Shown here: piece by piece, positions 1 through 10,750 of the stretch
Layout: each line of letters opens with the position of its first letter
Position numbering within the stretch: position 1 is the stretch's first letter
Origin: Patellaria atrata CBS 101060
Lineage: Eukaryota
DNA: 64,000 nt
Reading direction: 5' to 3'
Assembly: GCA_010093705.1 (NCBI GenBank)
Contig: MU006090.1
Coordinates: 1,143,817 to 1,207,816 of the forward strand
The notes under the pieces: generated by a model
The model's input: only the letters and a program-made list of their open reading frames with translations
Databases searched by the model: none
What the model was told of the DNA's origin: nothing
Program-made: the position numbers and the translations under genes

Positions 1-3291
<3,291 letters not shown>

Positions 3292-6200
3292 GGTTGCGGT
3301 TAGCCTTGCATACGTCTCCAGATAGTTTCGGTCGAGGAGGTTTGGTGCCTCGCTATGCTAGATGGAGTGACCAGGTTCAAGTAGAAGCTCAATACGCGTA
3401 GTATTAATGGTCGAGATTGTCGTACGAGGAATATATGGCTGGTGGAAGGTAGCCGAGCGTGATAGAGGCGGGGAATAGCAGGATATGGCAGGAGTAAAAG
3501 GCGAAAGGGGTATCTCAAGGTAGGCTGAATGTAACGAAGAAGTTCAACAATATTTCAAAGAAGAAGTAGGTACAGCAGTGTGTAGCAGCTTTTCGTATCG
3601 TATATTGTAAAAGCCCAGGCTAAAGTTTGTAGCCCTTGCTGCTGAGGCACCACAGGAACCGCCCGCACAGCGAAACGCGGCGAAGTTGCTTTTAGTAAGT
3701 TCGGCAGCCCGTATCGGTATGAGTACGAAGTTGGGTGACCAGGGATCGGTACAGCAAGGAAATGCAGTGATACTCGTTCAAGAGCTGAGGAAAAGAATGT
3801 TGAATCCACTGACTATATGCGAAGTGGGGTGTGGTGTTGTTGCATTTTTCGATTCAAGAGAGGTCAATGCTCGATAGCAAAAGACGAGTTTCATCAATCA
3901 ATGCTATACAGTAATCGCAAGCCCGAGATCAAGGCGATCAGAAATCCCATGCAACTCCAAACAGCTGGCGTGTTGCTGTATTTCTACTTTAACACGGCGA
4001 ATGCTGCTATTTAGAGTTCGACGTATCTTTAAGTACAAGGTGAGAACGCTATACTCTTGACTCCTTACAGGCACTTTACTACCTGCTCATTGTATGTACT
4101 TTCTCTGGCTCTAGATCTGATAATATGTCCCACAGAATCCATGTAGCTTTCAATAACACCAACGAGTTTTAACTTGGCCACCACTGGCGAACGATATGAC
4201 GCTGATATCACAGTCATCTCGCGCCACTAGCCTATTGCAAAGATATATACAGAGCAGGGTGAAAAGAGTACTGTACAAAAAAAACTTACTGTACAAGCGA
4301 ACAGCGCAATCCGCCTATCCGAAGATATCCAGCAACTCGGAAGCCTTGAATGTGTAAGAAGGTCCACCGTCTTGAGCCTCTTGGACGTGTTCCCAACAGT
4401 CAGAGTTTCGTGCTCCGTTTGGGAGTCTTTTCCTTGAGCGATCTCATGCAGGAGGTAACGCAGCGATATGTTGCTAGAAGCTATGGAAGCCGTTTGGTCG
4501 CATGAGGACGCGTCAAACGAATGAAAGTTGAATTCCAAAAAGCAGCATCGAGTCGTTTCAAGACCATCACTTGGCTGAACACGTGCAAGATTTCTTATGC
4601 ACTGTGGTAAGCTAGAGCAAGCGTTGGAATAATAAGAAGCTGAAAGTATTCCAAGACGTCTGACTTTTGGGGGAGCGACACCATAAGCAGGGAGAGACGT
4701 TTGATTTTATGGACCAGAGCTGCCTAGATATGCAGCTACGGAAACCTCCATATTTCTCTGTACATACTTCTTCCCTCAAAGTACCCGCATGCGATCCTCC
4801 ATGCCGGTGATACCTCCAGGTCACGAAAGAGGGTTCGATTAGGCAGGTGGATAGAGAAGCGATGCGATAAATGGCCGCCATACAGTACCGACCGGGAAGT
4901 TTATCTCTATCTAGAGACGCCGGCCCAAGGAATAATGCTGTGATATTTATTGAAAACCGTTATCCTCAAAGGATGGTAAGATGGCGTGGATGGTTTACAC
5001 GCCGTTGCGCTTCTTATTACCGCATCCTTCGAGCTGTCATCAGTGTCATGGTTCTCGGTTCTTCGGTGAAGGAACCGAATGGCGATATTCGTCCATGTTA
5101 CAATACGGGTAAGTCATATATCTAGACATTTTTAATTGGGTGGAAAATTAACTCCGGTACTTTGAGGGGGTAAGCTGTAGCCTAGACGAGTATGGTGTAT
5201 CAAACCCATCAGCTTATATAAGCCGGTCTCGGTCGGGGCGGACACGGTGGGTGGGAGTTGAATAAAGGCGGTGCAGGAACTAGTTTCGCATGAAGTTTTT
5301 AATTTTGTGTCTACGAACTGAAGCGATAAGAACTGTACCTTTAATTATCGGTACCTGTGAAGATTGAAGAAGTGATTCAGTCCTTTAGATGGAGGAGGTT
5401 TCATACTGTACAGTACAATATTAATGGGGTCCAAGCCAAGGGTTCCGTTCACGTATTATGGAAGATTTGCCGTGTGGTACGAAGGTTGAATCAACAATCA
5501 ACCCACGGGCGGTTCATGTGGCACGGGTGGGGGCTAGGGTAAGGTAAGGTAAGGTAGCTGTCGTACTCGTACCGTATCTGGGCATTTTTTGACCCGAAGC
5601 TTCAACCGCGATCCTGAAGCATGGCAATTCCACTGCAGCACTGTATCCCGTACAGCTACTACTGCTCTACAGTAATATGTGTGTAGACACAACAGGCATC
5701 CTAAATTCTTCAGCTTGTAATACGGAAATTGTCGGAAGCTCAAAGTGTCAGCTTGCCGTCGTCACTGTCTCTCTAACGGAATTGAGTGCTCAAACTCGCT
5801 CAACGGATCTCCGGCTTTTGGATCGGCACGCTAAATCGGCCCTGCCGTTCCCATTTAGGCCCGGCTCCTCCACTCATTCATCGCTTCTTCCCCCCATTCC
5901 CCCCAAAATCGCTTCCGCTTCCATTCTCTTCTTCCTACGAGCCCCCCAGACCTTTTCTTTTCTCTCCATCTGCACTCAGCGACTCCTGCCCTTTCCTCCC
6001 TCATCCGACTTTTTCCCATCTGATCTCAACTGCTTTTATTCTGCCTTGCGTCTTGAACTGGACTGAACTGAACTGAACGCACTCGACTCCTCATAACATC
6101 GCTTTGACCCGAAGGAGCTCCAACACACCCGCCTGTTTTTCGCGGGAAGTCCTCTCCTCCTCCGGCTTTTCCATCCGAGGCACGACTTGCCATCCGTGTC

Positions 6201-6490
6201 CAGTGTCCACAAACACCGCAACAACCCGCTTATCCACATCAGGACATTTGCGCTCTCACCCAAAGCTCTAACAACCCAACTTTATTATTTATCTACTGAC
6301 GCCAACTGCACGCGTGTCAATTGCGACTTCAATTGATCACAATCGCTGCGCCCACTCATCATCTCAGCTTATTTTTCAGCTTCAGACGAAAGGAATCCAA
6401 CTTTCGAGCTGTTCACATCCACCAACTGCCTCTTTACCTGAACTTGCAACAGACACCGACCACATCCGACCTTCAACAACAGCCGCCACC

Positions 6491-9478
6491 ATAGATCAAT
6501 CAACTCCTTCGGCGGGGCGATTCCCCGCTCTGCACCCGTCCCAGGCCTCGCCATCCTCGCCCCAGCAGAGCACCTTAAGCCCGTTGCAACGATATAGCGC
6601 AGAATCTCCGCGTGAGGCCGGCACCGCTACCGGATCCTCACACCGACGCGCCACCGAACAGCCCCGCATGCGATCTTCAATTGCCTGCACGCACTGTAGG
6701 AGAAGTAAGGTAAAATGTGAGAATCAAGGTGTGGATACGACATGCGCAAGTTGTCATCGTTCAGGACGGACCTGTCAGTATCCCACCCCAGGCAATCCGG
6801 GAGCCATTACAATTCCGTCACGGAGAGAAAGTGTCATGCCCGGTCAATCGCTGGGCAATACGGTCAATGAGCCTGAGGTGGGTCTCGCGCGCGCTGCTCT
6901 GATAATAAAGTATGCATGTACGCTAACCTTACCTTAACATCTTAGTCCTCGAAAAAGCAACAACGATCGAGGAAGGCGGCTCAACCCGGACCTTCCTCTT
7001 CCGGCTTGCAATACGAAGAAAATCTACTGAACATTGACCCAGACCACTGGAAACAATTGGTATGTTGGAAGTCATCCCTTAGGTTTGCGTTTGCATCTCT
7101 GACCTCCGTTAGTTCAATATCTTCGAACTACACTATTCGACTGAGCTGCCGTTCTTGCATAAGCAAACTTTCCTCAAACCACTCCACAAATCACACTCAC
7201 TCAAGACGGTGCCCGACTATGGCTATTCAAATGACGACTCAAAAGTTTACCCGAAACCAGCAGCAGACGATGTCACTCTCCTTGCTTTCCTGGCTCTCAC
7301 CGTTCGCTTTCACCGGGAATTAACACAACTCCACGGAGGCGACGCCATTAGCGCCAGTAAGATTTATGCCGATGCGGCCTGGAAGCATGCGGAAATGACA
7401 ATTGCCGACTTCTGGCAAGAACCAAACCTACAACGAACGCAAGCACTTCTCATGTTGGCCGTACTTGGTAGTGGATCAAGCGAGGGTAAGAAAGCTTGGG
7501 GCGCGGTGTGCAATGCTCTCCTATCGGCTCGCGCTTTAGGCCTGACTGATGCCAAAGGCTCGAGAGAGCACCAAAACAAGCGCGCACCTCCCGCCCACAC
7601 GGGAACTGGCTTTTCGGGTCACGGTGCAAACGGATCAGGTTACCATTCTAACTCAGAAGATGCTATAGCAGAGGAAATTGAGCGTCGAACATTCTGGAGT
7701 TGTTATATTATGCACACGTATCTTGCGAATGGAGTAGAACGACAAATCTTAGTTCAACCCAAGGACATCAAGATTCAGTTACCCTTGAACCAAAACACTT
7801 TTAATTATGGAAGAAGAGCTCAAACCCTCTTTTTGGGGGATAACGTCCAAGATGAATATCACCAAGGTCCAAATTCCAAAAAGAGGAAGCTTTCAGACAA
7901 CAGCAGTATTGGAACCGGAAGTGGAAAGACTGAACCCGAGAGCTTACTCAGCCTCTACATTAGAGCAGTTGACTTATACGGAGAGATCGCTCGATGGTCA
8001 CTTAGCGGTGGGAGGCGGTACGTAATCACGTATTTAGTCAATCCCGTCCGACAATTTGACTGATAAAAAAAAATAGGATTGATATGGACAGAAATGGAGA
8101 CCCAATTCCCCCATGGACACCCGAATCCGCTTTCTACAAGCTCCACTCGCGATTACTTTCCTTCAAGGAGAGACTACCAGAGAGTTACACTTATAACATA
8201 GAACAGACCGGAGCTAGAGGTGAGGATAGGATTTCAACCCCTTACACATTGATGCACACAGTTTTGGACCTTTCTGGCATTCTGTTGCACAGAGAGTACG
8301 TTCCCTGCATTGCTTTGAAGTGTCCAAAGGGTCCGGAAGGACCTCTTGACAACCCGAAGTTTACCCCGAAACAATTGGAAGGAATGCCGAATGGGTGGTG
8401 GGAGCAGAGTGCCGGTGACCTTTTCAAAGCTGCCAGACGGATTGTCGACCTCTTGCGAGAATGTCAAGAGTATGAGCTCCTACCGGAGACTCCGATTGTT
8501 GCATATGCCGCGCATATTGTAGCGTTCGTCGGTAATTAAAACTTTTCTGAAGTTGTTAGCTTTAATGCAGATGTAACTGACAAACCTTTAGGTGTTTATG
8601 CTCAAATGTTTCCTCATATGGATCAGGCCAAGGCTATGTTCCGAGGCGAGAGCCCATATGGTCATAATTCCGGAGCGAACAGTGACACCGAACCCAGCCC
8701 GGAAATATCAGCAGTGTTAAGCATCTTGAGATACATGGCGCAACGCATGACGATGGCTAGAGTCTGGCAAGAACAGACATTGTTGATGTTCAAGGAGCTC
8801 CGTAGTATTAAGGACAAGGAGATCCGTTTGTTGGCCGGGGGACGTGAAGCACGCCGTGGCTCGATTCTTAACGATGAGGGTATCGGCGAAGGTGGAATTA
8901 AAATCTGGGAAGATATCTTCAGCCGCAAGCTAAGCGACATGCTAGGTTTCCACACCGCCGAAGAGATCCGAGAGGTCGAAGGGAACGGAAGTCTTGGTCG
9001 TGACGATAACAGCAGTGATGATCGCAGCACTGTCAAGAGCGAAGCAATCGATACGCTTCAAGAGTCCTCGGACACGATTCGGCGTCAGCAAGCGTCCGGC
9101 TTCACATCCATCAACACGACTAATGCTAATGGGCCTTCCACAGGTCCGGCAGACGACCAACGTAGGTCATCCCAACATCCGATGTCGCCCGAGAACAGCG
9201 TGCAACAGAGTCATCCGATCGCCGTCAATCTCGTCGCGAATTCTCATTATGTCCCACAACCACAGCAACATTACTATCCCCAAGAAGTTGCGTATCAACA
9301 AGTGAGGCAAGATCAGCCACAGATCCTTTATGAGACTCCGACGCTTGCACAGCTTCAACACAATTCAATTCATTTGTTCCAGACCGGTGATCATTTACAG
9401 GATCTTGGGGTCACTTATGGCGGTTATCTCGATTCCAGGTGGAGACAGCAAACTGAATTTGGAATTCAGCGAGCTTAA
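6491..9478 (+). CDS. Zn(II)2Cys6 transcription factor with a fungal-specific TF middle region; 5 exons; first ATG at 6668, candidate non-AUG start ATA at 6491
   Basis: ACTHCRRSKVKC...CASCHRSGRTCQY binuclear cluster and EEIERRTFWSCYIM motif. Introns at about 6878-6945, 7060-7112, 8018-8076 and 8532-8591 restore the frame. Confidence 0.92.
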
Positions 9479-10750
9479 TCATGATGAGTGCTAATCTACG
9501 TATAATAAGTTCGATAGATCGGTTCTCTTTTTGTGTTCCCTACTCGAACTCCCTCTTCGGAGGTAGATTTTAATATGGCTTTTTCGGAAAGGGGAGGGTG
9601 TCCTACCCGCTTGTTAGGCGTTGTAGGCACTTTGCTCTTTTCATTTTGTAATACTTTGTGTTATTTGTTTTTGCTTCCCTTTCTGCACCGATTGTTTCAC
9701 ACAATTGCTTTATGTCGATATCTCATTTCAATTGCCCACCTCAGTATGTTCTCATTTGAAGACGTAACAGCAGCTTTGGAAGGGCTCTCCAAGATGTACC
9801 TCTTCTCACGGGCTAAACATACACGGCATCTTCACAAGGTGAATCTTAGGTTGAAGATACCTATATTGGTTGTTTAGAGCAGACCTTTCGGATTTTTGCT
9901 TTGGCTGTGTTGGTTGGAAGGGGGAAAGAAGGCAAAGAGGTCATGCTTTATGTTAGTTTTATGCTCTTTGATGAATCGATAGCTGTATTCTCCTCAATCA
10001 CTTCCTCCCGCGGTGGCTATGTAACGTTTCCATCCCTCCAACGACCTACACGTCACAACATATATGGTTCCCGGTTGAGCTTGTTCCCTCGTACTTCGCA
10101 GAATACCTATCTTGCCCACTTCAACATCTTTGCGTAGTTGAAAGACTACTACTAATTAATGCCCCTCTCAAGTGGATATACCTTTTCCCTTCCATCCCCC
10201 CTATCTTTCCCACCCCTTTCCATGCTCCCTATCCTTCCATCCCTTCCCTTCCCCCTATCATTTCACCACTCACTCCACCACCATTACCATGATACCTTTC
10301 CTCGCGCCCCGTGCGGATACAAAACCTACACCCGTCTATCCGCCTCTAGACTTTTAAAAGGTGACGAGAGGTGAAAATCTTACGTCATGAGGGTGTTGAG
10401 ATGGGTGGGTGGACTATTTGTCTGGAGGTGGATAGGAGGATCGTGGTTGCGGTGGGGATAGGGATAGGGGATAAAGGAGTAGATATGTGTGCGATATCGC
10501 ACTGTGCTCTGAAGTAGAGAATGATAGCTCTGATATCCAGTAGAAGCGCGTTCCACCCGACGTCTCAACGAGCTCCACCAAAACTCAGCCATGCGGCACA
10601 CAAAAACGGTCAAACCCAACCTGCACACATCCCATCTCCCAGAACTAGTTCTTCACCAAAATCACACGACACCCACTTCCCCCCGATCCAGTACCAACGC
10701 CTCAGTTTAAAACTTTAAATTGGAGCAATGATAGAGGGGGGCAGTCACCC

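Follow-up and report, generated by a model that had tools for sequence, protein, structure and literature searches.

Where does translation begin in a gene that is preceded by almost a kilobase without a single ATG, and whose first ATG, when it comes, lies in a poor context? The gene in question encodes a Zn2Cys6 transcription factor of Patellaria atrata CBS 101060. It lies in a stretch of 64,000 nt (GenBank assembly GCA_010093705.1, contig MU006090.1, positions 1,143,817-1,207,816, forward strand) that we analyzed as a whole and call the window; all positions below are counted from its first letter. The original prediction, made from the letters of the window, was that the factor also starts at a non-AUG codon, an AUA at 6491, which would extend the protein by 59 residues at its N terminus. 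Comparison with orthologous loci supports this prediction, chiefly through a conserved motif that occurs in frame in 32 of 32 matches, the ratio of nonsynonymous to synonymous substitution rates (dN/dS) in the extension, and the depletion of ATG upstream of the main start. We believe that the gene probably makes a longer form from AUA 6491 in addition to the 856-residue form from AUG 6668, and that this start is conserved across the family.

The features of the locus on which the prediction was built are real. Consecutive ATGs on the + strand lie at 5677 and 6668, and this gap of 991 nt is the longest in the window, the next longest being 488 nt. A coordinate check found 0 ATGs from 5680 to 6667, a stretch of 988 nt in which 8.0 (dinucleotide composition) to 9.0 (mononucleotide composition) would be expected. 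As had been stated, the frame that leads to ATG 6668 opens at 6272, following a stop at 6269, and runs for 132 codons, and the first ATG (6668-6670, + strand), which encodes a conserved Met just 5' of the zinc cluster and would start the short isoform, has a poor context with C at both -3 and +4. The ATA at 6491-6493 on the + strand is in the same frame, 59 codons 5' of the ATG with no stop between them. Its context was rightly described as strong: it reads GCCGCCACC-ATA-G (6482-6494, + strand), with A at -3 and G at +4, and fits the motif CCG[CT]N[AG]NN-AT[TA] that we found in the family. The 59-codon extension (6491-6667, + strand) is rich in Ser, Pro, Gln, and Thr and contains no ATG in any frame. 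The leader 5' of it (5680-6490, + strand) is likewise free of ATG in all three frames and contains no donor-like GT[AG]NG[TC].

We can also say that the ATA at 6491 is not an assembly slip, because deep DNA contigs show no differing letter. Two DNA contig sets (X1, depth 315, and X2, depth 442), which probably come from the source reads and hence are not independent, agree with positions 4600-10000 letter for letter. ATA at this site is also carried by five other loci and is not peculiar to the genome of Patellaria.

Is the codon, rather than just the open frame, something that evolution has kept? The nearest relatives of the factor are at most 38% identical in the middle domain of the protein, and because of this an alignment of leaders from close species was impossible. 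We scanned metagenome contigs with an alignment of 26 homologues, which yielded 79 orthologous loci; 57 of the locus rows include the start of the zinc cluster. In most of these loci the frame 5' of the Met is open for 60-130 codons and has no in-frame ATG. Toward the N-terminal end of such frames there is a conserved motif, an Ile codon with nine bases before it that resemble a Kozak consensus. In 47 distinct loci, the window included, we then scanned 450 nt of sequence 5' of the zinc cluster for CCG[CT][ACG][AG][ACT][ACG]AT[TAC] regardless of frame. There were 32 matches, and all 32 were in frame with the factor and none out of frame, against a background of 0.04 per 450 nt (57 matches in 639,614 nt). 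For 42 distinct loci there are 240 nt or more of upstream sequence, and 31 of these carry the motif. A purine at -3 is found in all motif loci by definition of the motif. The distance from motif to Met takes 18 different values, ranging from 21 to 129 codons and always in whole codons, and therefore many independent insertions and deletions have kept the frame.

As the codon of the motif, 25 loci have ATT, 6 have ATA (the window and the five others), and none has ATC. Among the Ile codons of the same genes, ATC makes up 46% (353/768), ATT 32%, and ATA 22%. Given that ATC is absent from the motif even though it is the commonest Ile codon, the constraint must act on the nucleotides and not only on the residue. 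The bases from -9 to -7 tell of a similar preference, being ACC in 13 and GCC in 2 of 15 contexts, while Thr codons are evenly used in these genes, with ACC at 26%. In two loci (L019 and L021), the frame is closed by a stop 7 codons 5' of the ATT, and none of the codons in between is near-cognate; in others the in-frame stop is found 11 codons (L056) or 14 codons (L063 and L073) upstream. Pairwise nucleotide identity is 0.47-0.73 from -72 to -13, rises to 0.83-1.0 from -12 to -1, and is 0.58-0.92 from +4 to +63. Downstream of the codon the ortholog extensions are under purifying selection: third codon positions change most, and Nei-Gojobori dN/dS is 0.11-0.55 in all 11 pairs (11/11). An alignment of orthologous upstream regions had been proposed as a check on the prediction, and it came out positive: the open frame and a non-AUG codon are both conserved, and dN/dS is below 1. 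Taken together, the frame, the codon choice, the upstream stops, the step in conservation, and the selection on the extension have the marks of a near-cognate translation start, as far as comparative data can tell.

The abrupt onset of conservation, about 12 nt before the codon, is also what an exon border would look like, and this brings in a different explanation, that the extension is translated from an AUG in an upstream exon that is spliced to an acceptor just before the motif, for example the AG at 6481 or at 6493. Several loci do have an AG within about 20 nt 5' of the motif, some of them together with a branch-like CTAAC or CTGAC (judged by eye), but in 4 of 15 loci (L007, L063, L073, and L078) the 36 nt that precede the codon are without an AG. 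Positions 5680-6667 of the window contain no donor-like GT[AG]NG[TC], and the nearest branch-like CTRAY is at 6296, 185 nt before the AG, whereas in the four introns of the gene the two are no more than about 25 nt apart. The leaders are free of ATG for hundreds of nucleotides 5' of the motif, which would not be expected of introns, and in one locus (L005) the upstream start AUG is directly preceded by a stop. We consider a spliced upstream exon very unlikely.

ATG 5677, at the far end of the gap, opens a frame of 129 codons (5677-6066), the first residues of which look by eye like the conserved start motif. We considered this ATG as the true start and set it aside; it lies 990 nt upstream in another frame and there are no donor or branch signals to join it to the gene. 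The likeness is probably due to chance.

If the extension begins without an AUG, it could still begin at a different in-frame near-cognate codon between 6272 and 6490. The frame is open there and contains 11 such codons 5' of the ATA. However, only 2 of the 11 have a purine at -3 and none of them combines this with G at +4, none is within the conserved motif, and the ortholog sequence 5' of the motif is not conserved. This makes a start at one of them highly improbable. The original prediction had offered A-to-I editing as an alternative, in which the third base of the codon is edited (AUA to AUI, within a UAG) so that an AUG-equivalent start appears; in the form that we weighed, this would happen at some life stage. 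Base 6493 is in a T-A-G triplet beside a hairpin, and TAG is a preferred context for A-to-I editing in some fungi. On the other hand, 25 of 31 loci have AUU, in which the third base is not A and which cannot be edited to an AUG equivalent, so editing cannot explain the conservation across the family. As a family-wide mechanism it did not hold up, the start can be explained without it, and for Patellaria we regard it as the least probable of the explanations that we weighed.

The preferred reading, a start at AUA 6491, also requires that the window itself belongs to the pattern seen in its relatives. In two loci (L015 and L052), the eight bases before ATT are identical to the eight bases before the ATA of the window. 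By itself the context is less telling than it may seem, as CCGYMAMVATH occurs 3 times in the window, both strands counted, where 1.73 are expected. The probability that a match coincides with any of the 132 positions in frame is ~0.002. Directly 5' of the Met, the codons RRATEQPR (6644-6667, + strand) correspond to the RR.(E/D)QPR tail of the ortholog extensions. Residues just 5' of the Met are conserved in this form across orders in the database homologues, and the RR.EQPR version is common to the window, Lophium, Phyllosticta, and others. A profile made from the extensions of the AUU clade, with the conserved tail removed, scored 8.9 bits in frame 2 of the window, and 0 of 300 shuffles were as good; the other five frames gave -1.2 bits or lower, or no match.

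Several results weigh against translation of the extension in Patellaria, and they are best considered together with the explanation that they favor, namely that only AUG 6668 is used in this species and that 6491-6667 is an untranslated leader, either a relic of an ancestral extension or a conserved RNA or DNA element, with an open frame that arose by chance. Such an open frame is not improbable. Stops number 6, 6, and 10 per frame in 5680-6667, a low density for ~329 codons each, and because the region is stop-poor a 59-codon open frame would arise by chance with a probability of ~0.27, while for the 132-codon frame the chance is ~0.05. A profile of all clades, in contrast to that of the AUU clade, is not discriminating (-0.5 bits in frame 2, with 7 of 300 shuffles as good). 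The pairwise similarity of the body of the extension is not significant either: in BLASTP of the window extension against 42 ortholog extensions, the best score was 20.0 bits and shuffles reached 21.9. The window extension is also shorter, with 59 codons compared to 72-78 in the nearest clade, and a peptide found after the start in that clade is missing from it. As a rule AUA initiates weakly (PMC5666671), and the public gene model begins at the AUG. Nonetheless, the codon in the window is still near-cognate and its nine-base context is intact, the clade profile matches frame 2 alone, the RR.EQPR tail has been retained, the extension is free of ATG in every frame, and ATA is found at the same site in five other loci. 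Based on this, we think it unlikely that Patellaria uses the AUG only.

Two further comparisons were made along the way. By eye, frame 1 of 6440-6600 somewhat resembles the N-terminal peptide of the clade; we rejected this reading, both on its score (-1.4 bits, with 277 of 300 shuffles as good) and for its stops at 6439 and 6595. BLASTP of the upstream frames of the window against the annotated extensions of homologues gave nothing above shuffles.

Is the downstream AUG then also used? Most ortholog leaders have no ATG in any frame for hundreds of bases. For 33 distinct loci the upstream sequence extends to 400 nt or more, and the 400 nt before the Met have in total 32 ATGs, compared to 101.9 expected from dinucleotides and 194 copies of CAT, the reverse complement. 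There is no ATG at all in these 400 nt in 22 of the 33. In the nearest clade and the window combined, the extension has 0 ATGs in 1,974 nt, where 13.5 are expected and where equal lengths of downstream sequence have 36. Because the extension has no ATG in any frame in the nearest clade, we argue that the downstream AUG is used too, and two isoforms, of 915 and 856 residues, are on this evidence the most likely outcome. In most of the family the main AUG lies in a weak context; of the 38 loci that have ATG there, 23 carry C at both -3 and +4. In some homologues, the main Met is replaced by Leu, Val, His, Ile, or Ala, and therefore the zinc cluster protein needs an upstream start in those.

Among the metagenomic loci, L034 has ATA and L041 has GCG in place of the main ATG, and there the zinc cluster protein needs an upstream start or another non-AUG start. 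Not all loci follow the common pattern. Six of them (L010, L011, L012, L023, L051, and L061) have a different short upstream frame of 32-73 codons, with ATGs about 100 nt upstream and no motif; there may be an intron just before the Met in this group, or the extension may have been lost. In another six (L049, L062, L063, L073, L074, and L035), an out-of-frame ATG lies 14-17 nt before the main ATG, and this could open a short upstream frame that overlaps the gene and modulates initiation at the main ATG in these clades.

One sister clade, which has a conserved RLADSLL-type peptide, deserves separate treatment. Here the AUU/AUA motif is 21-25 codons 5' of the Met and coding conservation continues upstream of it. 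At 6-8 codons 5' of RLADSLL, the ten distinct rows have ATG in one case, CTG in five, and GTG in three, and the tenth has a stop directly before the peptide. The single ATG (L005) comes directly after a TGA and has T at -3, which is a poor context, while the CTG is in the context ATC-CTG-G. Database proteins of this clade start with Met at the same place. The interchange of AUG, CUG, and GUG at one position points to non-AUG initiation in the family, as judged from the aligned rows. The loci of the clade are L005, L006, L018, L027, L035, L038, L040, L058, and L060; the motif is 21-25 codons before the Met in 6 of the 9 (L018, L027, L038, L040, L058, and L060), where several isoforms are possible.

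The same clade provides an argument against the motif as a start. Where the motif stands at a distance of 21 codons from the Met, it is enclosed in a longer frame that is conserved, and it could also be read as an internal peptide motif. Since the AUU/AUA motif can sit within a longer frame in this clade, we keep the peptide reading open. Counter to it are the codon-level invariance of the motif and the upstream stops in other clades. A Venturia nashicola gene model (P0034) has a 63-residue extension that starts with AUG and is homologous to the one that starts with AUU (30.8 bits, pairwise). We do not claim a swap of ATG and ATT at that site, because the Met of P0034 does not align with the ATT position.

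The original prediction also pointed to a hairpin downstream of the AUA as a feature that could promote the start. The hairpin is present (GCGGGG/CGATT/CCCCGC, 6512-6528, + strand), with 6 base pairs and a 5-nt loop. It begins 18 nt after the AUA codon (spacer 6494-6511), which puts the stem at +22, and it is the only perfect 6-bp hairpin made of G and C only, with a loop of 3-8 nt, on the + strand of the window. The importance given to it is not supported. At -15.0 kcal/mol (z -0.49) the region is no more stable than shuffled sequence, for 55 of 200 shuffles reach this energy or a lower one. A further point against the proposed start is that 14 orthologs have no consistent structure at the position of the hairpin (z -1.21 to +1.58). 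The distance fits structure-assisted initiation, but the structure is neither unusually stable nor conserved. At most, the hairpin may assist the weak AUA in this one lineage.

The identity of the gene product is clear. In our own gene model, the gene body runs from 6668 to 9478 on the + strand, stop included, in five exons (6668-6877, 6946-7059, 7113-8017, 8077-8531, and 8592-9478), of which the largest is 100% identical to a database protein of Patellaria atrata. The predicted protein has 856 residues from AUG 6668 and 915 from AUA 6491. It scores 28.1 bits for PF00172 (Zn_clus, cut-off 21) and 66.3 bits for PF04082 (fungal-specific transcription factor, middle domain, cut-off 23). The binuclear cluster, C-x2-C-x6-C-x9-C-x2-C-x6-C with the spacing read from the translation, is encoded at 6686-6775 on the + strand. 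With both domains and the six-Cys spacing intact, the product is a Zn2Cys6 fungal-specific transcription factor, and in these respects it is like the Gal4-type factors.

The public gene model has 837 residues and omits 57 nt (6715-6771) within the zinc cluster. The omitted piece begins with AT and ends with AC, which is non-canonical, and its loss costs three of the six cysteines. Because all orthologs retain the full cluster, the skip looks like an annotation artifact. The 5' neighbor is a divergently transcribed protein-kinase-C-like gene on the minus strand (142-3357) with HR1, C1, and protein kinase domains, and about 3.3 kb separate the coding regions of the kinase and the factor, which is large for a compact fungal genome.

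Annotation of the N terminus is inconsistent throughout the family. Of 69 database homologues, 21 are annotated from the Met just before the cluster and 19 have upstream extensions of 52-277 residues; the other 29 fall outside the N-terminal pattern that we used, and most of these are truncated models. Gene callers require AUG, and the inconsistency follows from this. Both the models that start at the Met and those that start at a far-upstream AUG have likely missed the true N terminus. A start that public annotation has missed is one of four aspects that we find worthy of note, the others being how deeply the start is conserved, the unusual length of its conserved context, and the AUG-free architecture.

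We propose the following course of events. Ribosomes would scan the long AUG-free leader and meet AUA 6491 first, in the optimal context GCCGCCACC-AUA-G. A minority would initiate there with initiator Met-tRNA and produce the 915-residue isoform, the 59-residue extension of which is probably disordered and would end in the basic RRATEQPR beside the DNA-binding cluster. The remaining ribosomes would pass through the AUG-free extension, reach AUG 6668, and produce the 856-residue isoform. We infer that AUA 6491 lies within the transcript and serves as a start in Patellaria; indirect support for the former comes from the absence of ATG in the leader from 5680 onward and of any donor-like site in 5680-6667. 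The ratio of the isoforms would follow how stringently start codons are selected. The proposed start makes this regulatory idea testable.

Extending this to the whole family, we tentatively suggest, as a reading that is quite possible and that we hold less firmly than the start itself, that a family of Zn2Cys6 regulators in the Dothideomycetes and probably beyond has kept an AUU/AUA start for a very long time, together with a long conserved context, an AUG-free leader, and a main AUG in weak context. Each such gene might then have a built-in sensor of start codon stringency (as set, for example, by eIF1/eIF5 balance, stress, or development) that determines the ratio of two isoforms, with some lineages tuning it by CUG, GUG, or AUG in poor context. 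If this is true, the isoforms would differ right beside the DNA-binding cluster, and it would be the first such case in the largest family of fungal transcription factors. These features also make up a compact nucleotide signature that can be searched for in other genes, with AUU or AUA in an extended and conserved Kozak context, a leader free of AUG, and a main AUG that is weak.

How does this compare to known non-AUG starts? In animals, a review (PMC5666671) describes AUU as the sole start of human TEAD1/TEF-1, and an AUU start for PTEN-beta with a hairpin 18 nt downstream. Like the start proposed here, these are AUU-type starts in favorable Kozak context that lie 5' of the annotated AUG; they differ in being animal genes that are unrelated in sequence. 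The hairpin of PTEN-beta begins at the same spacing of 18 nt after the codon as that of Patellaria, but it is described there as conserved and required, while the Patellaria hairpin is absent from 14 orthologs and not unusually stable. Structure-assisted initiation at non-AUG codons (START) has a reported optimum of +23 to +26 for a CUG codon (PMC11165317). The downstream stem in Patellaria, at +22, is similar in position. It differs in that the structure tested in that study is far more stable, with -21.6 kcal/mol and 16 G-C pairs (PMC11165317), compared to six pairs in Patellaria, and an effect in fungi is putative.

The best match among known systems is cpc-1 of Neurospora crassa, the GCN4 homologue, and to that extent the kind of start that we propose is already known. 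The original prediction had named cpc-1 as a precedent for a non-AUG extension, and the literature agrees: conserved near-cognate N-terminal extensions are reported, in which AUC or AUA takes the place of AUU in some species (Ivanov et al. 2017, PMC5487733). Both genes encode fungal transcription factors and have a long leader, purifying selection on the extension (in our case seen in the orthologs), and an inconsistent public annotation of the N terminus. In both, the near-cognate codons are in frame and are conserved together with a near-optimal context, across a class or subphylum in cpc-1, and AUU can be exchanged for AUA (in cpc-1 also for AUC) between species (PMC5487733). The differences are also clear: cpc-1 is a bZIP factor with two AUG upstream open reading frames (uORFs) within the leader, and its extension bypasses uORF2, while the Patellaria gene encodes a Zn2Cys6 factor behind an AUG-free leader (PMC5487733). 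In the Patellaria family, unlike in cpc-1 as described there, one site with a nine-base conserved context dominates. The cpc-1 start has in vitro and ribosome-profiling support, while that of Patellaria is predicted from sequence comparison (PMC5487733). Within the literature that we searched, nothing came up on non-AUG starts of Zn2Cys6 factors or in the Dothideomycetes, and what would be new here is the Zn2Cys6 factor. If confirmed, it would provide a second, independent, and deeply conserved fungal example beside cpc-1, in another class of transcription factor.

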